Assembly (NCBI RefSeq): GCF_902713615.1 | Contig: NC_052148.1 | Coordinates: forward strand, 210,460,263-210,524,262 | Direction: 5' to 3' | Source: Scyliorhinus canicula | Lineage: Eukaryota | Length of the DNA: 64,000 nucleotides | Shown here: piece after piece, positions 1 to 11,528 of the stretch | Numbering within the stretch: the stretch's first letter is position 1 | How the letters are laid out: each line of letters opens with the position of its first letter | Translations under genes and position numbers: made by a program | Notes under the pieces: generated by a model | What the model was told of the DNA's origin: nothing | The model's database searches: none | What the model saw: only the letters and a program-made list of their open reading frames with translations

Positions 1-188
1 CGTCATGACGCTTGTAATGTAGAGCATAGGAATGGATTGCGCATGCGCAGATCGCTTTTCCTTTACTGTGCGCTCTTTGCTCAACTGCGCATGTGCGGTT
101 TGTCGTGCATGCGCAAACAGACTTTCCTTCACTGTGCGCATTTTTCGGAACTGCGCATGCGCGGCTCCTTGCGCAAGATGGCTGTCAG

Positions 189-530: not shown

Positions 531-1497
531 TGTTGCTCGTTCTACTGTTAGTGTGATTAACACGCCTCCATTTAAAGGACATGTGCTTAACACTGGTTTG
601 GCTCTGTATCTGTATTTATACTCAGGAGTCGCCAGGTGCCATAAGAGACACCGTCACAAGTTATCAAGGTCAAGTTCAAAGCAATAAATCTAAACACCGA
701 TCAGTAAGTCCAAACAATTAGTGTTTATTATAACAAATATAATAAATACTCATGCACACGCTAAAAGACTAATACTTATTCCTACTATTCAACGACTAAA
801 TACTTATCTAGAAAGGAACAGGCAAGGTCAGGGGGGCAAGGCCTTCGTCCCGTTCTTGGTCTGCAACTTCTGGTTATTAAGTCGGCAAGTGTATAAGCAA
901 CGCCTGGGTCACGTAGCGATCGTTGTTTTGGCACTTACTGATAGATGGCTGATGCTCAACGGCCGCTGATGAAAGACAGGGTCTGGAAGCTGGGGTCAGA
1001 GTCTGGAGTCAGGATGCAACAGCCTAGGCCGGAGTCAGGAAGCAACAGACCGAATCATGTGTGGGACCTTTTTTTTATAGGTCCCAGGAGGTCCAGGTCC
1101 CCTTGGGGCGGTTCCCTCATCGATTGGGTCTTTCCCGATCGATACGTTTTGAACTCCCCTATCCTGGGGTCGTTTCTCGATGGCTGGGGCGGTTCCTCGG
1201 GGTCACTATTCTGGTTTCTCTGGCGCCATCCTGGCTGGGTAGCTATAGAAAAGTATCGATTGATACTTAAAATGTTTCTATTGTATCTGGGACTGGGCCG
1301 GTATCACCTCATTAGTATGCAGATCGCTTTCCTATTTGCACCTTTGGCTGAGTTTCTGCAACTGCCTTGAAACCGGTTTTGTACGTGCAAAAATGCTAAA
1401 TGCTTCTGCAAGCTGTGTGTCCTTACTATGGCTGTTTTTCCCTGTATTCTTTGTGGTTCTCCATTTTGTAGACTGGTGTCCATCTTAGAGGGCTAAA
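531..1497 (-). repeat. 3' LTR of the provirus
   Basis: Aligns end to end with 9425-10391, with about 29 differences by manual count (~3%). On the minus strand it ends CAACA and begins TTTAG rather than TGTAG (G>T change). It follows the PPT. Confidence 0.96.
724..729 (-). terminator. Polyadenylation signal of the 3' LTR
   Basis: Minus strand AATAAA (plus strand TTTATT), conserved in the 5' LTR at ~9618-9623. Confidence 0.65.
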
Positions 1498-1508
1498 TTC
1501 CCTCCTTG
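1498..1508 (-). promoter_or_regulatory. Polypurine tract
   Basis: Minus strand AAGGAGGGAA directly abuts the 3' LTR. Confidence 0.8.
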
Positions 1509-1885
1509 TGATCCTCACGAGAAATTCTGAAGGATCACCTATGTATGGTTCTTCTATGTTACTTCGATTTCCTTTGGGTTCCTTTTTGGGTTCCCTGACC
1601 TTAGCAAGTTCCTGGGCGTCTACTCTGTCCTTAACTATGGCAAGAAAATTTTAACTCACATTTTCTACTTGGCGCTATGTCAAAGGGGACTTGCATTACC
1701 AATATTCGGGAACCTCTATCTATCACAATTCCTATTCTCATCTTACTTTAAACATTTCATCACATTCTAAAGTCTTATCCATTCACACCACAGTACATGT
1801 CGCTTTCTGACTCGGCAATCGAGTTCAGAACCATATAATACATCAGTGTCTCATTTTTATTTACATATGGCTATAAATACATTTC

Positions 1886-2233
1886 CTATGCATCAAGGGG
1901 TTGGGGGGATTGGTGAAACCCGAAAATAGGGGATTGAACTCCGTAAATGGTTGAGGGGCAGGAATGGGAGGCTCTCCTTTTCCATTTCCTCAACCTGAGG
2001 GTCTGTACTATGATGCAGAGAATTGCAATCACCAACAGTGATTCAATCACATACGACATCGAGTACCAGGTCATGAATTTCGTGCACCAGGTCTGAACCT
2101 CACTGATCAGTGCTGAGAATGGAGAAGTCGATGTGTGGGAAACATTAACGGCGGGGGTCGCGGGGGAAACATGATTTGCTTCAACATGCAAAAATACAAC
2201 AATATTTAAAATAAATAGGTAGGCTTCCATCAT
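1886..2233 (-). CDS. 115-aa predicted type-I membrane protein in the env position (function unknown)
   Basis: ACCATGATGG Kozak context; hydrophobic N-terminus (YLFILNIVVFLHVEA); S/T/P-rich ectodomain with an NVS sequon; hydrophobic segment VIESLLVIAILCIIVQTL; polybasic RLRKWKRR; no internal stops. Confidence 0.6.
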   Translation of the reverse strand: MMEAYLFILNIVVFLHVEANHVSPATPAVNVSHTSTSPFSALISEVQTWCTKFMTWYSMSYVIESLLVIAILCIIVQTLRLRKWKRRASHSCPSTIYGVQSPIFGFHQSPQPLDA

Positions 2234-3160
2234 GGTCTTCTTTGTTCTCTTCCTTCTCTTCCTTTGTATGGCCGATCCTTGCCGTGAACCCTCCGACTGT
2301 TCGAAAGCTATGGGATCAAGCACAGTATCTGTCAATACACAGTTTAATATCTGTACTGTTAGTGTATCTGTCCTCTCATTCGAATTGACCCTTAAATGAA
2401 TGGCCAAGTCACACCCTGTGACTCCCCTCATTTTTTTTTTCAAATGCAAATTTAGGAGCAGATATACACCTAACAACTTTTCTACTGCGAGCCGTCTCGC
2501 AGGCTTTGCGATTTACCATCCGAATGTTCCTGGATGTAAATAGCATGTGGGATGGCTGCCGAAGGGCTACCTAAAGAAAAATGAAACCAAATTTTGAACG
2601 AAAAGGTCGAATGAGTTGCGTATGGGCCGCTACGGGTAAGATTTGAACGGGATCCCCGGGTAAGACGTGCTGTGCCGTACCCGAGCTTGGCTGACCAAAG
2701 GGGTTCTCAGACAGGGCGGGTCCTCAGTGCCGTTTGTCCGCTACCTGAGCAACCTGAAATGAACGGGTATGAATGTATTCATCGTGGGATTGCAGCCTCT
2801 ATTCACAGAATAGAGGGGTACCTGAAAAAGAAGGGAGGAGCCAAGATGCTCCAACATCCGAAAACAGATTACAAGTCGTGAACTTTGTCGGTTCACCAGA
2901 GGATACTTAACTGAAGTTCTCAGAGGTATCTGCGGATAAACTAACGTGTGTGCGAGGCGGTCACAAGCTTTTCAGCTGAAAAGAAGATGGCCAACCTCCA
3001 ATCAAACCTTTAACAAACAACAAAGTGATCTGATCTCCAATCAAACCCTTAATATTATCAAAAAACAAACAAACACAAACAAACAAAACATACGTGCAGG
3101 TTCCATCAGAAAGGATATCGCTTCCCTCAAGCGGTTCCTCTTTTACATCATCTGGACACC

Positions 3161-6100
3161 TCACTTCTCCTCTTTCTCTGTGAACAGGGTCACAAAGGGG
3201 TTGCCGTATCGGGAGTCAGACATCACGTCTTCCTTTTCTCCCGGATCCCACACTCTTGTGTGGATCAGGCACGCGATCTGTGCATTATGTGACCGGGGGT
3301 CACTCTCATCCTTGCGGACAAGTCTCCATGAATTGTCCCTTTGCCAAATTGTGGTATCTAAGTTTGAAGGGGCATTGTCGGTGTCGTCGGGGTCGGGTGG
3401 TGGGTCTAGGTATTTAACGTAGGTGACCTCCATGGGGTCACTGGAGTCGGGGTCGAAGTCGTTGAAGTGGGGGCTGTAGGGTGGAGTTCTGTGGCTGTCC
3501 TCAGTTTCACAGTCACTGTCGCTGTCTCTGCTGTGGCAGCTTGTGGGCGTTTTGGGGCGTGGTCTGAAGTCAGTGGACGGCGTCATGGGCGAGTCCGATG
3601 AGGAACTGGTCTGTGAGGGGGATGGTGGGAATGTGTCTCTAGTGGGCGGGGCGAGATGTTCTGCTGCGTCTAGCAGGACATGGTGTGTGTGGTTAGACTG
3701 TGTTCCATATGCCTTCAGTTGGTTAATATGAAACCACGCAGTCTTACCATTGGGGTATTTTATTCTATAAATGGAGGGGCTAATTTTGTCCGAAATTGAA
3801 TACGGGCCGGAAAATTTAGGTGCCAAAAAGCTGCTGGGGTTATAAACAGATAACATTACCTGTTGTCCAACCTGAAATTCTGTGGGGTGTACGTTCTTAT
3901 TAAAGCAAGCTGTGCTTTGTTTTCGTCTTTTTCCCAATTTTACTGCGGCTGCTAACTGTGCAGACCTCACAGTCTCAACTAGGTCTTTGATTGCCTTCTC
4001 ATGTGTGAGGGCCGTCACTTCGGGGCTAGTCATGTCCAGTCCTAAAAGGAATTCTGTACCTTTCATAGGGCGTCCGGTCATGAGCGTGTGTGGGGTGAAT
4101 CCTGTGGATGATGAAACCGTGTTGCGGATGAACATGAATGCGAATGGGAGTACTGAATCCCATGTTGAATTGTTCTCCTGAACTATTTTTCTAAGGGTCG
4201 ATTTTAGGGTCCGATTCATGCGTTCGACTGGGGGTGATACGCAATGTAGAAATTTTGTTTAATGCCAAATATTGTCAGGACGTTCTGCATGACCCGTCCT
4301 GTGAAGTGAGATCCCTGATCTGCATCTATACTTCTCGGGAGACCCCATCTCGTGAAGATGTGGTGGGTCAGGATCTTTGCAGCTGTCTTAGCTGTATTGG
4401 TTCATGAGGGGAATGCCTCTACCCATTTGGTAAAGGTGTCTATAACGACCAGAACATATTTATAGCCATTCCTACAAGGGGGCAATGGTCCTATAAAATC
4501 GATCTGGAGGTTAGTCCAGGGGCCATTAACTGGTCGAGTATGTCTAAGTTGTGCCTTTTTCGAGTACCTCTCCGGGTTATTTTGTGCACAAATTAGGCAA
4601 TTCTCGATGTAATGGGTCACATCGTTTCTTAAATTTGGCCACCAACAGAGTTGCCTGAGGTGCCTTGTGGTCGGGTCGATCCCTTGGTGTCCATGACTGT
4701 CATGGAACAAGGCAATCATCTGATTCCTATTCTGTTCCGGAACCACATAAAGTTTATCCTTAATGATCACACCCTCATGTGTGGTCAAAGCGTGTCTGAA
4801 CGTATCGTATTGGTGCACAAAATTTCCTTTAAAAATCTCCCTGAGATCTCTATCCTGCTTCTGTGCCTCAACTAAGTCTTTAATTTCCGTCTGTGAGACC
4901 TGAACTGCACTCACAGGGGCGCTAGCTGGTGCGCCAGCTGGGGGTGTCCAAAAGTGTCCTCGCCTGGAACCTGCTTTTGCCAGTGCATCGGCTTTTACAT
5001 TTCCAGGGGGGGATGACCTATGGTGACTTCTAACTTTGATTATGCCATACGTCCTATCCTTTGCCTTCTCTAGGATATGGCGGAGTAATGGGGCTGATGG
5101 AAGGGGCTTCCCGTCCGCGGAGACAAAACCTCGTGTCCTCCACAGGGGTAGAAAATCTGTTAAACTGTTACAGACATACAAACTGTCCGAATATATGTCT
5201 GCCGGGCTGGGAAACGAATCTGGGTGGTCCACTATGTATGCGATGGCCGCGAGCTCTGCTGCCTGCGCGCCTAAGTGTCCTGGTAATTTTAAAGAGATTT
5301 CTTCTAATGCGCGACCCTGCGCATCCTCAACATAGATCCCGCATCCAGTGATGCGTTCTCCATCTAAAACTGTGGATGAACCGTCCACATATATTTTCAG
5401 TGGGGCACACGTGTCTGTGTGCTGGGGGCTCTGGCTTGAATTCCCTATCTTTCTGGGGGGTGTCTTTGCTATGAAGGTTCCTGTGTTGTGTAGGGGTGCT
5501 ACAATTTCACATTCATGGGGCTGTCCTGGATATTGGAGGTTGTCGGCTAAAAATGTGTGTGTCCTGGTCCGTTTAACTGTGATGCCCCGTCCTTGTAAAA
5601 GTAACGTCCATCTAGCTGCTCTAATCTGGCTAACTGAACCGTCCTTCAGTCGACCGGCTAGAAGTAACTGTGTGGGGGTGTGCTCGGTCAAAATGGTGAT
5701 GGGATTGAGTCCGGTAATGTACGCAAAGTACTGAACTGCCCAAAAAACTGCTAGGAGGTGCCTCTCGCAGGCTGAAAATCCTTGCTCTACGGGGTCTAAA
5801 AGTCTGGAGGCATAAGCCACTGGTCTTAGCTGCTCGTGCCGTTCCTGGAGTAGCACGGCCGAGAGGGTCAGATCTGTGCTCGCTACCTCTATTGCATAGG
5901 GGGAGAGTTGGTCTGGGACTTGTAGCGCGGGTGCTGCGCTAAGGGCTTTCTTTAAATCTTCCACAGCCTCTGTATGCTGCGGAAGCCATTCCCATGGGGC
6001 TCCTTTCTTAAGGAGGTCTGAGAGTGGGGCTGCCTTTGTCGCGAAACCATCGATATGGTTCCGACAGTAACCAACCAGTCCTAAAAACGACCGGAGGGCT

Positions 6101-7041
6101 GAAACATTCTGGGGAAGGGGCAATTTGACAATCGAATCAATCCTTTTGAATTCGATCTCGCGTTTGCCGTGCGTGATGACTGTACCCAAATACATCACTT
6201 TGTTCTCTAATATCTAGGCCTTTCTGGGGTTAACTTTACATCCGATCGAGGTTAAAAGTTCCAGGAGCTCGGCCAGAAGCGTAATGTGCTCTGCCTTTGT
6301 GTCTGTCTGCAGTAATAGGTCGTCCACATACTGTACCAGACATTCGGGGCGGGAAAATTTTACTAAACCATTTGCCAGCTGTCGGTGGAAAATGGAGGGT
6401 GAATTGTGGAATCCTTGTGGGAGGCATGTCCACGTATACTGCTGTCCTTTAAATGTGAAGGCAAATTTGTACTGGCACGCCTTTGCCAATGGGATTGACC
6501 AGAAGCCATTGCTAATGTCCAAAACCGTGAAGAATTTTGAGTGGAGTCCCTGTTTGAGCATGGTCTCGGGACTTGTTGCTACCGTGGGGGTTACTTTGTT
6601 GAGCTCCCGATAATCGATGGTCAGGCGCCATGATCCGTCGGGCTTTCTCACTGGCCAAATAGGTGCATTATTGGTCGAGGCTACTGTCCTAAGTACACCT
6701 TGCTCCAATAAGCTATCTATTACTTTTCCTATTTCTCCCTCTGCTTCTAGGGGAAATCGGTACTGTTTCTGTGGTCGGGGGTCAGGTCCGGTAACTTGAA
6801 CTTGTCCAGTCACTCTGCCGCAGTCATGCCGGTGACTGGCAAATGCTGTCCTGTGTTTATTCAAAACTGTCCTAACCTGTTTGCCCGTGCTAAGCGTGGT
6901 CGGGTCGAAACAATAGTCGCCTACTGCGCTAATCCTATTCGCATACTCTCCTACTGTGAGAGTAGCGGGTGCTCTGTCTGATTTTGCCATTCGCCAGACA
7001 CACTGGTTTACTGGATCGAACGACAGGCTATGAGCATTCAT
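3161..7041 (-). pseudogene. pol: pol: reverse transcriptase, degenerate RNase H tether, RNase H, integrase with long C-terminal tail
   Basis: RT motifs LDISNGFW, LPQGFHNSP, YVDD. In-frame TAG at 6214-6216. RNase H motifs YVDGS/AELAA/SDS/ADALA. IN motifs HHCC, QIDFIGPLP, ERMNRTLK, GPY. Frameshifts near 4402 and 4230. Confidence 0.95.
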
Positions 7042-7368
7042 GAAATCTATACCCAGTATGTGTTCTGCTGTACGGGGTAGATTAACTAATGCAACGGGGT
7101 GTCTGGTGGAGATGGTCCCTAGCTGAATTGCTACGGGGGCTGTAATGTGTCCCTGCTGTGAGTGTCCTGTAAAACCGCTGAGTGTAATGGTGGATGTGGT
7201 CGGCCACGTGTCTGCCTGTGCCGTGGTGGTGGAATTAATTGTGGTGCGGGACCGTCCTGTGTCCCAAAGTAACTCTATGGGCTTCCCTCGAACCTTTGCT
7301 GTGACTACCGGTCTCCCGGATTGGTCCCAGAGGGTGTCACAGACCCAAGTGGGGGAGCCCGAACACTG
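7042..7368 (-). pseudogene. pro: Aspartic protease domain (not shown in the ORF track because it has no start codon)
   Basis: Manual translation is open and in frame with gag and RT: ...PIELLWDTGRSRTTIN...EHILGIDFM. Confidence 0.9.
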
Positions 7369-9114
7369 TCAGTCCGTTCCGTCCACATTGGTCTGTCCTG
7401 ACTGTATTCCTATACTGTGAATAGGCTTCGCTCTATTTCTGTTCAGAGTGCCTGTCTGCTGGCCTCTCTGTGATCTTTGGGGTGCATTGCCTTCCTTAGC
7501 AAAATGTCCTAACTGACCACAGTTGTAGCATTCCTGCGACTTCTGTGGAGGGCTGTTCTTCCCTTCGTTTACCCATGCGGGGTTTTGGTGCGCTCTCACT
7601 GCCTGAATGTCCGCTGCAGCCTGAGCTTCATCTGGGGTCTTTATTTTAATTTTGCCCTGAACCGATTGTTCCCAAGCGCGGGACAATCTTTTCAGAACCC
7701 ATTTCTCGTTATGGGCCTCCTCTGAGGGGTCGTAACTATTGCAAGCACTCTGTCCTGCATCTGTGGCATGGGAGATTATGGTGCGTGTCCATTTAACCAT
7801 GTTGTCACGGTTCAAACGCGCTCGGTTTAATTCGCCAAAAACTGCAGTGAAATGGATCCACAGCCTTCCTGCAAATGTTGTGGGATGCTCTGTTCTCTTT
7901 TGTCTGCATTTATTTCGTCCTTCAACTGGATCTCCTCTGTTATACCCTATTGCACCTAAAATGGAGGTGTGCATTTCCTCTAGTGTGCCTCCTCCAACGA
8001 TCTGTGGGTCGGGGAGGGCTGCTACTACGGATGGGTCTAATCTCAGAACCGTGAGCTTAACCTGCTCTCTATCGTCCAGGCCGTACATGGTCGCCTGCTG
8101 TTTAACATTTGCGAAAAATTGGTGGGGGTCTCCGGTGGGGAGAAACGGAGTGATTTTCTCACACGCGTCCCTGAGTTACGTTACAGTTAAGGGGGTGGTG
8201 TAGGTGATATCGGGTGCGCCGTCTGTGGTTGCCTTTCTTTGGGTGGTGACTGGGTTCATAGGTGCGGATGCTATCTGATCTGTGGGGGGTTGGGGTGCTC
8301 TCCTTTTCTGCTGCGCTGCTGGTGCACATGTTCCTTGAACATAGCGCTGCGCTGTCTCACTCAGTTCCTGCCAGTCTGGGGCATTCTCCTCATCTAACTG
8401 CGTTCCAAAGGTGCTTTGGAACCCATTCTGCACTGAAAGCAACAATTGCAGCTCCGCAATCTGCTGCCTACATTTTGCATGGTCTACTGTGCTCTGTCAT
8501 TGCTCAGTGGTGGCAGCATGGAGTGCTCTTAAAGCTGCCTTTAGGTCAGAGCATTGCCTCTGCAATGCCTCTACCTGCTTTTCCGATTCCTCTCTTATCA
8601 GGACTTCACGTTGCACATCTTGGTAGGCTTTTTCGTATTGGGTCTGGGAACTGCTCCGATGGGCTAGACACGACTGATGTGCCCTCTTGGCATCATCCAC
8701 CTCTCTACCCTTCTCTGTCAGCTTCCCTCTTAGTTCTAAGTTTTCCTTCTTGATGTCCCTGACATCCACTTTACTCATTCTATTCCTCTCTTCTAACTCT
8801 GCTCGGAGCGTCCGAACGACCTCCTCAGTGCCTCGCAACTGTGCCAAACAGGACACGATTGCCATCGGCTTGCGTGCTTTACTCGGATTTTTCTTATGAA
8901 TTTGAGAGAGGTTCTCCCACCAAGTATGTCCTATACTCCCGGGACCTGTCTCCTCATTCATACAGAACTCATTCCAAAGGGGCCATCCCTTTCCTTTCAG
9001 ATACTTGCGGAGTTCCAGCTCCCACACGGGCCACTGACCTATTCGGCTACTGCTGGTCGCTGCGACCAAGAACTGCTCTGGGTTCATGAGGCGCTCCATT
9101 GCCTGCATGGCCAT
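7369..9114 (-). pseudogene. gag: gag (coiled-coil N-terminal part, capsid-like region, single CCHC-type knuckle)
   Basis: ORFs 8497-9114, 8176-8445 and 7369-8088 are all in one frame, broken only by TGA (8497-8499) and TAA (8176-8178). Knuckle CYNCGQLGHFAKEG has the last Cys changed to Gly. Confidence 0.88.
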
Positions 9115-9399
9115 TTTCTCTTTCTTACTTAAATTTGGAACAGGGGGTGTTGAGGTAATGTTTTAAAAGACGGGTAAGGCTTTTGCTATGTTCCGCTTAA
9201 AAACTCCTGACAGTTCGTCGCAACTAAAAGCTCTCAGGTTAACCTTACAACCCTGTTAGTACGCATGCACAAAACACACTTCCGAATTATCGTTATTGGT
9301 TTGAACACCTTGACCACTTGTGATTTTTCCTTTTTTCCAATCAGATTTCTAATTCAAATTTCTGGGTTCTTACGGAGTGGGGGTGCCACTTCTAATTGC

Positions 9400-9419
9400 G
9401 TCCCGTCTGAGAGTCGCCA
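9400..9419 (-). promoter_or_regulatory. Primer-binding site, tRNA-Arg(UCU)-like
   Basis: Minus strand TGGCGACTCTCAGACGGGAC starts 5 nt after the 5' LTR. The first 10 nt are complementary to the ...AGAGUCGCCA 3' end of vertebrate tRNA-Arg(UCU), recalled from memory. Confidence 0.7.
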
Positions 9420-9827
9420 CTAAATGTTGCTCGTTCTACTGTTAGTGTGATTAACACGCCTCCATTTAAAGGACATGTGCTTAACACTGGTTTGGCTCTG
9501 TATCTGTATCTATGCTCAGGAGTCGCCAGGTGCCGTATGAGACACTGTCACAAGTTATCAAGGTCAAGTTCAAAGCAATAAATCTAAACATTGATCAGTA
9601 AGTCCAAACAATTAGTGTTTATTATAACAAATATAATAAATACTCATGCACACGCTAAAAGACTAATACTTATTCCTACTATTAAACGACTAAATACTTA
9701 TCTAGAAAGGAACAGGCAAGGTCAGGGGGGCAAGGCCTTCGTCCCGTTCTTGGTCTGCAACTTCTGGTTATTAAAGTCGGCAAGAGTATAAGCAATGCCT
9801 GGGTCACGTAGCGATCGTTGTTTTGGC

Positions 9828-9833
9828 ACTTAC
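9828..9833 (-). promoter_or_regulatory. Candidate major splice donor inside the LTR R region
   Basis: Minus strand TCA|GTAAGT about 135 nt downstream of the TATA box, present in both LTRs. Confidence 0.5.
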
Positions 9834-9966
9834 TGATAGATGGCTGATGCTCAACGGCCGCTGATGAAAGACAGGATCTGGAGGCTGGGGTCGGAGTCTG
9901 GAGTCAGGATGCAACAGCCTAGGCTGGAGTCAGGAAGCAACAGACCAAATCATGTGTGGGACCTTC

Positions 9967-9975
9967 TTTTTATAG
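9967..9975 (-). promoter_or_regulatory. LTR TATA box (U3)
   Basis: Minus strand CTATAAAAA, conserved in the other LTR (~1072-1080), upstream of the LTR AATAAA. Confidence 0.65.
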
Positions 9976-10788
9976 GTCCCAGGAGGTCCAGGCCCCTTGG
10001 GGCGGTTCCCTCATCGATTGGGTCTTTCCCGATCGATACGTTTTGAGCTCCCTTATCCTGGGGTCGTTTCTCGATGGCTGGGGCGGTTCCTAGGGGTCAT
10101 TGTTCTGGTTTCTCTGGCGCCATCCTAGCTGATTAGCTATAGAAAAGTATCGATTGATACTTAAAATGTTTCTATTGCATCTGGGACTGGGCCGGTATCA
10201 CCTCATTAGTATGCAGATCGCTTTCCTATTTGCACCTTTGGCTGTGTTTCTGCAACTGCCTTGAAACCGGTTTTGTACGTGCAAAAATGCTAAATGCTTC
10301 TGCAAGCTGTGTGTCCTTACTATGGCTGTTTTTCCCTGTATTCTTTGTGGTTCTCCATTTTGTAGACTGGTGTCCATCTTAGAGGGCTACACGATCATCT
10401 TGCGTGGGTGCTGTTGCTGGTAGTCACGGATCTTGCTGAGTTGAACTATATAGATTCAACAGGCACTCACTGGTAGCATGTTGTGTTATGCTTCTTCATG
10501 TAGCATAAGCAGCTTCCTTGATGTATGCTTTGACAAAGGAAGGTCCAGACTTTGTAATGAGTTCAATATGTTTATTGAACTATTAACACAGTTCTTAAAT
10601 GAATTCGACTCTCCTGCTAATCTAACTGTAGTAGCTCTGTCTTACTAAACCAGTCTGCTCTAAGCCACGTGTTGGGTGTGATGCTTCTGATCAACCCTGA
10701 TGTACTCTCTGGATGTCTGTCTGTGGACAGAGGCACAGCATGTGTGCCCTGTCCTTTTATATGGGTTGTGTAATGCCCCCTTGTGGTA

Positions 10789-11144
10789 ATCATAGAATCA
10801 TAGAATTTACAGTGCAGAATGAGGCCATTTGGCCCATCGAGTCTGCACCGGCTCTTGGAAACAGCACCTTACCCAAGCCCATACCTCCAACCTATCCCCC
10901 TAAACCAGTAACCCCACCCAACACTAAGGGAAACTTTGGACACTAAGGGCAATTTAGCATTGCCAATCCACCTAACCTGCACATCTTTGGACTGTGGGAG
11001 GAAACCGGAGCACCCGGAGGAAACCCACGCACACACGGGGAGGATGTGCAGACTCCGCACAGACAATGACCTAAGCCGGGAATCGAACCTGGGACCCTGG
11101 AGCTGTGAAGCAACTGTGCTAACCACAATGCTACCGTGCTGCCC
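10789..11144 (-). mobile_element. HE1-like tRNA-derived V-SINE
   Basis: tRNA-like head GGGCAGCACGGTAGC, B box GGTTCGATTCCC, core GGGTTTCCTCCGGGTGCTCCGGTTTCCTCCCAC, (TTCTATGA)n tail. Confidence 0.88.
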
Positions 11145-11209
11145 AAATAAATAACTTCACCTTTCTCCCCATTGAAATTCATCTACCATCTCCCTGCCCA
11201 CTCCATAGT

Positions 11210-11528
11210 ATATCATAGGATATCATAGAACATACAATGCAGAAGGAGGTCATTCGGCCCATCGAGTCTGCACCGACCCACTTAAGCCCTCACTTCCACC
11301 CTATCCCCGTAACCCAATTTTGGACACTAAGGGCAATTTATCATGGCCAATCCACCTAACCTGCTCGTCCTTGGACTGTGGGAGAAAAACGGAGCACCCG
11401 GAGGAAACCCACGCAGACACGGGGAGAACATGCAGACTCAACACAGACAGTGACCCAGCAGGGAATCGAACCTAGGACCCTGGCGCTGTGAAGCCACAGT
11501 GCTATACACTTGTGCTACCATGCTGCCC
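11210..11528 (-). mobile_element. HE1-like SINE
   Basis: Same head, core and tail motifs. Confidence 0.85.

Follow-up and report, generated by a model that had tools for sequence, protein, structure and literature searches.

Organisation of the element

The window, a 64,000-nucleotide stretch of the genome of the catshark Scyliorhinus canicula, contains an LTR element on the minus strand (10391..531) with the same 4-bp target-site duplication, ATCG, at both ends (Table 1). The gag (zinc knuckle) and pol domains were assigned by Pfam, with zf-CCHC at E 4e-6, and the primer-binding site is presumably that of tRNA-Arg. A GTAAGT motif lies at a position comparable to the predicted splice donor in 13 of 16 LTR stretches scanned from subfamilies C, D and E. 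The window copy is dead: gag and pol each carry two premature stops and the integrase one frameshift, five lesions in total. The TGA between gag and pol is an additional stop that was not counted as a lesion, being found in all four of the other copies printed. The gag end reads TGA CGG TGT (7366-7368, minus strand), where the first nine bases match the coltivirus readthrough site, a context unusual for a retrovirus; PMC13517186 lists the TGA-CGG context for type II readthrough, including the coltivirus site. The integrase has a long Ser/Pro/Asp-rich extension with a terminal conserved Trp motif (3161-3600, minus strand), which is common to the env-bearing family G and was not seen in the older family F. 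The insertion site (189-530 and 10392-10700, minus strand) resembles, by eye, the leader/gag region of another LTR retrotransposon, and tRNA-derived SINE-like repeats follow at 10800-11500.

Between the end of the integrase (3161) and the 3' LTR (1497..531), in the slot usually taken by env, lies an open reading frame of 115 codons. All other minus-strand frames in this gap are shorter, which bears out the initial annotation of this DNA, where the frame was described as the only coherent one, and in the start accATGATGG the second ATG is flanked by A (-3) and G (+4), the good Kozak context claimed there. The frame is free of stops, again as claimed, alongside the five lesions of gag and pol. 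Because the intactness of a single copy proves little, the evidence presented below is taken from the whole family. The AATAAA that immediately follows the stop codon is present in 47 of 50 subfamily A and B copies and in all eight C, D and E copies; it sits upstream of the 3' LTR, and RNA reads run beyond it.

Table 1. Features of the catshark element in the window, and residue ranges of the predicted 115-aa protein
Feature	Position	Strand	Remarks
5' LTR (TG...CA)	9425..10391	-	97.1% identity with 3' LTR over 966 nt
Predicted splice donor GTAAGT, in LTR	9828..9833	-	about 140 nt downstream of TATA box 9974-9968
Primer-binding site TGGCGACT...	9402..9419	-	
gag	7366..9114	-	coiled coil, CCHC zinc knuckle, no Gly2; terminates at TGA-CGG with pol in the same frame
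pol	3161..7368	-	protease, RT, tether, RNase H, integrase
Candidate distal splice acceptors	2930..2990	-	AG at 2977-2976 and 2931-2930; RNA depth increases here
Conserved non-coding block	2486..2795	-	predicted hairpins; 67-80% identity to diverged E copies
Purine tract resembling a central polypurine tract	2421..2441	-	also before env in the env-bearing sister family (by eye)
Predicted env-type splice acceptor	2308..2333	-	74 nt upstream of ATG, then a GA-rich stretch; motif precedes env in family G
Mini-Env ORF, 115 codons + stop	1886..2233 (2233..1886)	-	in the env slot
AATAAA	1860..1866	-	immediately 3' of the ORF stop codon
Polypurine tract	1498..1507	-	identical motif in family G
3' LTR	531..1497	-	paired with 5' LTR
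Signal peptide (predicted)	residues 1-19		
S/T/P stalk (predicted)			sequon at N30
Amphipathic Trp helix (predicted)	residues 43-57		
TM (predicted)	residues about 58-79		
Polybasic stretch (predicted)	residues 80-87		RLRKWKRR
Tail (predicted)	up to residue 115		

Features of the predicted protein

Hydropathy and helical-moment analysis recovered the features that had been read from the sequence at the outset: a signal-like N-terminus, an NVS sequon, a Trp-containing amphipathic stretch, a single TM and the polybasic RLRKWKRR. N-terminal hydrophobicity is maximal at residues 6-15, in a stretch finishing in V-E-A, and signal cleavage would fall after residue 19. In all subfamilies this hydrophobic stretch is predicted to be separate from the TM and to finish in an A-x-A-like end. 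The sequon is N30-V-S, and the amphipathic helix at residues 43-53 has a helical moment of 0.59. The AlphaFold model (helix 2-20, coil, helix 38-91) agrees with these features at modest confidence (mean pLDDT 67.5). The mature protein would thus have one TM and an ectodomain of about 38 residues beyond the predicted cleavage site. An SU domain, furin site, fusion peptide and heptad repeats are absent from the 115-aa protein and present in the env of the sister family. A complex prediction with three copies of residues 36-115 gave a score of 0.01, which is no answer.

The cysteines differ in their conservation. Cys50 is found in 58 of 58 copies and Cys39 in 55 of 58, the window copy having a private change at that position; Cys39 is absent in subfamilies E and H, and Cys92 in subfamily D. 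The initial annotation drew attention to a Cys within the TM: the single helix stands, but this residue, Cys73, is not invariant, being missing in 4/4 subfamily D and 1/4 subfamily C copies. The tail motif is conserved across subfamilies. Gly2 is found in none of 11 aligned ORF copies, so that the motif for N-myristoylation is absent.

Database searches with the ORF gave little. Pfam returned weak matches alone (TMEM156, E 0.013; Meckelin, 0.047), a word-indexed database search returned none, and the ESM Atlas held no match at 0.9 or above. No donor was found among 1.84 billion representatives, where the five credible matches are all catshark models containing the same ORF; a repeat protein (P0022, E 7e-4) was rejected as a homologue on grounds of composition. 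Neither this ORF nor any natural anchor-only Env under selection is described in the accessible parts of the literature compared, which includes PMC11379458, PMC7412173, 10.1101/2023.10.26.564294 and PMC12440569, with Repbase, subscription journals and preprint supplements outside its reach. The ORF is thus apparently undescribed, as the initial annotation supposed, while the element itself may already be catalogued.

Copies, subfamilies and age

The genome contains 1,366 exact matches to a 21-mer of the ORF and none to its reversed control; the count is a lower bound, as the 21-mer does not fit diverged subfamilies. Fifty copies retrieved via the ORF have a common layout behind it, and none of the 50 has a full env at its position. 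To avoid the bias of ORF-based retrieval, 20 copies were also chosen by pol. The ORF is at the same place in 18 of these, with identities of 36-88% over tblastn pieces, and the remaining two, both interrupted in the integrase, belong to an older family. The subfamilies were named A (which includes the window copy), B, C, D, E and H.

Identity between paired LTRs is 98.8-99.8% in subfamily C (5 pairs), 99.6-100% in D (4 pairs) and 89-97% in E (6 pairs, one further E alignment having been left out as not an LTR pair), and the mini-Env is still selected in subfamilies whose LTRs are 99.4-100% identical. Many copies have a pol open over about 1,410 codons, so that copying of the family has been recent. 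Full-length ORFs were counted in 19/30 copies of A, 20/20 of B, 4/4 of C and 4/4 of D, counts that are biased upward because the B copies were drawn from stop-free matches and a frameshifted C copy (L064) was excluded. The ORF is broken or shortened in the other 11 of the 30 A copies. Nine of the 30 copies in the A list (L007, L013, L014, L018, L024, L026, L027, L029 and L030) are pol-less derivatives that resume at about window position 3109 and retain the non-coding block and the ORF, with gag just upstream in six of the nine.

Purifying selection on the protein

Between subfamilies, the dN/dS of the ORF (Nei-Gojobori) is 0.16-0.31 in 12 of 12 pairs, with upper bootstrap limits of at most 0.50; these pairs share branches and so are not independent. 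For residues 44 to the end the ratio is 0.04-0.22, one pair being saturated. The corresponding values for pol are 0.07-0.11, and the dS values of ORF and pol are of the same order. One pair within subfamily E gave an ORF dN/dS of 0.57 (0.32-1.17).

A comparison of fixed and private changes was made on 58 copies of subfamilies A-D, with the commonest codons compared between subfamilies and private changes defined as those confined to one A or B copy. There were 38 replacement (N) and 56 silent (S) differences between subfamilies against 78 N and 35 S private changes (P = 4e-5). The private changes are close to neutral, with a silent fraction of 0.31 against 0.28 expected, and together with the deficit of replacements between subfamilies this indicates that selection acts on the copying lineages and on the protein. 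By region, the differences between subfamilies number 3 N and 27 S in residues 44-78, 16 and 14 in the tail, 10 and 8 in the signal peptide, and 9 and 7 in the stalk; purifying selection is thus strongest on the Trp helix and TM. The reading frame and its features are maintained to a dS of about 1.6 and in a second species. A frame that was not conserved, or evolved neutrally among copies, had been named at the outset as what would undo the case for a gene; alignment of the family copies shows the opposite, family-wide.

Non-coding signals and expression

The non-coding block upstream of the ORF has 167 invariant columns among 11 copies and is far more conserved than silent sites. Two-sided changes in its hairpins occur in 3 of 60 pairs, which is little covariation, and the block has no match in Rfam. 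Part of it is common to the env-bearing family G. It is possibly an RNA export or packaging element.

In RefSeq models from two catshark species, host sequence is joined to the ORF close to the predicted acceptor, which suggests that host transcripts may splice into the acceptor of the element. The ORF or its exon forms the end of five catshark models (P0017-P0021), among them HEPACAM2-like and prostaglandin EP3 receptor isoforms.

The family is transcribed in sense. In two oligo-dT runs one strand of the ORF bin was covered to a depth of 39.6 and 101, and the other to 1.0 and 2.5, respectively; this is the bias that sense RNA would give if the library is stranded. Reads at least 99% alike to the window number 5 of 1,390 and 31 of 4,711, and loose ends match subfamily D by eye; as so few reads are this similar, expression is demonstrated for the family and not for the window copy. 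A search of sequencing runs for the family listed no matching run on record as RNA. Depth increases five- to six-fold across position 2980, a step that can come from pol-less derivative copies or from the 3' bias of oligo-dT priming. Spliced reads joining LTR to ORF, which the initial annotation had put forward as a check, did not appear: no such joint was listed in four runs, most of whose reads had under 95% identity to the window and derived from other subfamilies, with LTRs too divergent to map. In run X21, 23 reads exit the LTR at about 9837, near the predicted donor, into one sequence that is absent from the stretch used for mapping; these possibly represent an LTR-driven chimeric transcript or a difference between subfamilies.

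Relationship to known retroviruses

Its reverse transcriptase (RT) suggests that the element, which was recently active, is a class III-like (spuma/ERV-L-like) endogenous retrovirus (ERV). The best PDB match of the RT is foamy virus Pol (E 3e-42, against 2e-22 for MLV), its motifs resemble those of ERV-L by eye, and the database proteins closest to it are 'NYNRIN-like' Pol of frog and coelacanth, at 39-51%. The element resembles the class III/foamy-like ERVs of fish, frogs and sharks (PMC5512871, PMC5210030) and snakehead retrovirus in this closeness of its RT to foamy virus Pol among solved structures, in its dual RNase H and in its 4-bp target-site duplication; in the ghost shark, pol alone was detected (PMC5512871). 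The catshark element differs from foamy viruses in the CCHC knuckle of its Gag, in a gag read into pol through TGA-CGG, in having no bel/tas-like genes and in its reduced env. A true foamy virus (Spumaretrovirinae) is ruled out by the Gag zf-CCHC match and by the gag TGA being in frame with pol.

Two other groups were considered. ERV-Spuma.0-Sca is likewise a spuma-classed catshark ERV, of about 9 kb (PMC10699275), but is likely not the same family, since its description gives another LTR start (by eye), an 866-nt LTR, a shorter pol and a 1.3-kb env CDS. Lokiretroviruses and Odin elements have in common with the catshark element a dual RNase H, and Loki env resembles paramyxovirus F, as the env of the catshark sister family may (PMC7947760, PMC9040795). 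Membership of the Lokiretroviruses is nevertheless unlikely, as the RT is unlike, by eye, the presumed Loki row beside KoRV in the published alignment, and there is no full env, where Lokiretroviruses have an F-like one and sometimes also smc; Loki was found in 0/3 chondrichthyan genomes in PMC7947760.

Env-bearing relatives and the origin of the ORF

In loci of the older family F a decayed gene of about 2.1 kb lies behind pol. It has a signal peptide, a Cys-rich region, a basic cleavage site, and a hydrophobic plus heptad stretch, followed by a Trp-rich segment, TM and basic tail. Pieces of this long env-like gene were found in 12 of 14 F-family loci examined, and at least 149-150 places in the genome are related to it. 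It has no meaningful match in Pfam or PDB, and a language-model search pointed to F-type fusion proteins (0.92, with Baculo_F in 32% of members), a lead of low recognition. All env copies observed are old and broken. Well over 100 decayed copies of an unmatched env, possibly F-type, belong to families F and G (loci L087-L098 and L107-L156), and the env of these families is a shark retroviral envelope lineage not described before.

Family G is the closest of the env-bearing families. Features found both in G and in the small-ORF families are the integrase tail, the polypurine tract, the LTR start and part of the non-coding block, and the acceptor motif that directly precedes the small ORF directly precedes env in G. 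In an integrase DNA tree (natural stretches from 25 of 26 copies, L092 having been dropped, 837 columns, F root assumed), carriers of the small ORF form one clade (support 99) that is sister to G (93). A protein tree of the integrase, which was set aside, unlike the DNA tree grouped subfamily H with G (support 79).

The ORF matches a profile of 19 family G env ends over 64 columns, with a probability of 82% and P 1e-5, and none of 150 zone-preserving shuffles reached its score (34.4, against a maximum of 24.4); this significant match was obtained after G had been chosen as the nearest env family. The matched residues, 44-107, take in T-W-x-[DT]-x-F-x-x-W, then the TM, then T-x-x-x-[RK]-[RK]-W and finally the tail; the alignment requires a single 10-residue gap. 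A profile of eight env ends drawn from both F and G, which are more distant, gave no significant match (P 0.031, the score being reached in 24 of 120 shuffles). No similarity between ORF and env was found at the DNA level (three matches at E 3-7), and homology of the signal peptides was not detected (at best 4 of 500 shuffles, in one of 18 pairs). Run over the env loci, the ORF profile gave weak domain matches (best E 0.14), with four of the ten best non-self matches on env TM ends. No decayed env was found in the non-coding gap.

An env reduced to its end occurs elsewhere in this genome. In eight of 30 loci (L135, L139, L143, L145, L147, L150, L155 and L156), named family M, the ectodomain has been lost and the env end retained 61-62 nt behind the acceptor, with an in-frame start after the acceptor in none of the eight copies. 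This deletion is independent of the small-ORF lineage and shows the route by which such a deletion can occur. Many further env matches start at the same point as family M.

From the alignment, the shared acceptor motif and the tree, residues 44-107 are very probably homologous to the env end, with a single origin of the small-ORF families beside the env-bearing ones. The existence of a sister-family env, the alignment of residues 44-107, the common acceptor and the position of the clade together suggest that the ORF is probably not a new gene but likely a mini-Env lacking the receptor-binding and fusion parts. The initial annotation, which saw the ORF as replacing env, was thus right in recognising a small membrane glycoprotein gene, here found to be conserved and selected; that this gene is unrelated to env is not supported. 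Its alternative, a deletion product of a full env, is likely correct because the full env of the sister family has a membrane-proximal end homologous to the C-terminal half of the ORF; this product is under selection and is not decaying.

Proposed function

The interpretation that we favour, at somewhat less than even probability, is that the mini-Env, retained by purifying selection with its signal peptide, Trp helix, TM and tail, gathers Gag capsids at the membrane and aids their transfer. A spliced mRNA from the LTR donor would yield a type I glycoprotein with a glycosylated stalk, keeping those parts of Env that contact membrane and capsid. Its tail would bind Gag or trafficking proteins, capsids would be gathered at the plasma membrane and their passage to a neighbouring cell eased, and the Trp helix may contribute membrane bending or hemifusion in the manner of the VSV-G stem. 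The final fusion step would likely be completed by host machinery at a contact between soma and germ line, which, granted the origin from env, we regard as about evenly balanced; the germ line is the likely destination because no other transfer would bring a genomic parasite a selective advantage. In all three long gag frames checked, Gag lacks both Gly2 and a PTAP, PPxY or YPxL late domain (two more copies yielded fragments). Foamy virus Gag is without a membrane signal and Env is required for budding (PMC3705266). Two precedents speak against the proposal: in foamy viruses the contact with Gag is made by the leader peptide, not the tail, and ERV-L and other elements lacking env are not known to need a protein of the mini-Env type for replication.

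The nearest functional parallel is the VSV-G stem (VSV-GS), a short membrane-proximal ectodomain from which the fusion core has been removed (PMC2823649, citing Robison & Whitt 2000 and Jeetendra et al. 2002). This stem with TM and tail boosts fusion by other proteins, supports low-titre transduction and gives mostly hemifusion (PMC2823649). The mini-Env resembles it in its membrane-proximal ectodomain of about 40 residues, its native TM, its tail and the lack of a fusion core. VSV-GS was engineered in the laboratory out of a class III fusogen, whereas the mini-Env is natural, likely derives from a retroviral env, is predicted to be glycosylated and has been selected across more than 1,300 copies. 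Truncated ERV Envs co-opted by hosts are also known: Refrex-1 and suppressyn are Env fragments retained under selection, at single host loci, with the ectodomain kept and the anchor lost. In the mini-Env it is the anchor that has been kept and the ectodomain that is gone, and selection has acted along the lineage of the element itself.

The layout of reovirus FAST proteins, to which the initial annotation had likened the ORF, would fit another reading, in which the mini-Env became a stand-alone fusogen that fuses a somatic cell to the oocyte and passes capsids, its amphipathic ectodomain possibly closed by a Cys39-Cys50 loop and acting with the TM and polybasic tail. FAST proteins have no cleaved signal peptide, and their TM is a reverse signal anchor. 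The comparison holds for size (115 aa, below about 200), the one TM, the ectodomain of about 38 residues, the polybasic stretch and the amphipathic helices flanking the TM; it fails for N-myristoylation or a conserved palmitoylated Cys (Cys73 and Cys92 are absent in D) and for the signal peptide, predicted here to be cleaved. FAST proteins and sORF2 of the insect (Drosophila) element MDG1 are likewise small single-pass proteins with a short amphipathic ectodomain and a juxtamembrane polybasic stretch (PMC11952523, PMC12945298); sORF2, sometimes encoded behind pol, belongs like the mini-Env to a host LTR element without a full env, and localises to invasive protrusions into the oocyte (PMC11952523). 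From both, the mini-Env differs in its lack of a myristoylation motif, its predicted cleaved signal peptide, its N-glycan site, its likely env ancestry and spliced expression, its vertebrate host and its retroviral rather than Metaviridae pol. That the Trp helix and TM are the segments most strongly selected, and that a Trp of env has become the invariant Cys50, which suggests a new function, argue for fusion. Against it, the conserved N-glycan site and S/T/P stalk would keep membranes apart, Cys39 is missing in E and H, the TM Cys varies, and the VSV-G stem gives mostly hemifusion (PMC2823649). We consider a stand-alone fusogen unlikely, and it is equally improbable that a vertebrate retrovirus made a FAST-like micro-fusogen from its own class I envelope by deleting the fusion core and spreads by direct transfer between cells from soma to oocyte.

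In other retroviruses, small TM proteins with conserved tails act as restriction antagonists. The mini-Env, whose tail motif is conserved between subfamilies and which has env-bearing relatives in the same genome, might similarly counter a host membrane restriction factor, as Vpu or glyco-Gag does, or poison the Env trimers of related viruses via its TM. The env copies observed are old and broken, however, while the mini-Env is still selected where LTRs are 99.4-100% identical, and a purely intracellular element would escape a block to budding or entry; such a defensive accessory role seems doubtful, no more probable than the fusogen. Glyco-Gag acts against SERINC5 (PMC13517186). Capture of a host or foreign gene, which would have replaced env behind the old acceptor and converged on the Trp-rich juxtamembrane segment, would fit the non-significant test against the mixed F/G profile and the missing DNA and signal-peptide homology, and language-model look-alikes (TMIE and influenza M2, 0.82-0.85) are leads in that direction. 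The order-specific match exceeds what composition gives, flanking the TM on either side and extending through the tail, and the searches above found no donor; we rate capture as distinctly improbable, below either of the foregoing readings. An env remnant with no function, passed on by a few master copies or retained for an RNA signal, has a precedent in family M, and 11 of the 30 subfamily A ORFs are broken or shortened. The 3 N and 27 S changes in residues 44-78, and a frame and features kept to a dS of about 1.6 and in a second species, speak against it; an RNA signal would not give a pattern in which silent sites change freely while residues stay. We regard this last possibility as very remote and largely refuted.

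Implications

On the established view, ERVs that lose env discard it or let it degenerate and then copy within one cell. The lineage carrying the mini-Env has kept the anchor of env alone, under strong selection, has reached more than 1,300 copies and is young and transcribed, while every full-env relative observed is broken; this suggests that there is a third state, intermediate between an infectious retrovirus and a retrotransposon confined to the cell. As a full env, a non-coding deletion of it (family M) and a selected mini-Env are found in one genome, that of a shark used in the laboratory, these steps are directly comparable. The lineage also offers a natural test of how the membrane-proximal region, TM and tail act when separated from the rest of a fusion protein, studied so far in engineered constructs, and a traceable origin for proteins of the FAST/sORF2 type. 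If the mini-Env does prove to be a fusogen, it would show that the membrane-proximal part of a common Env can give rise to FAST-like proteins.
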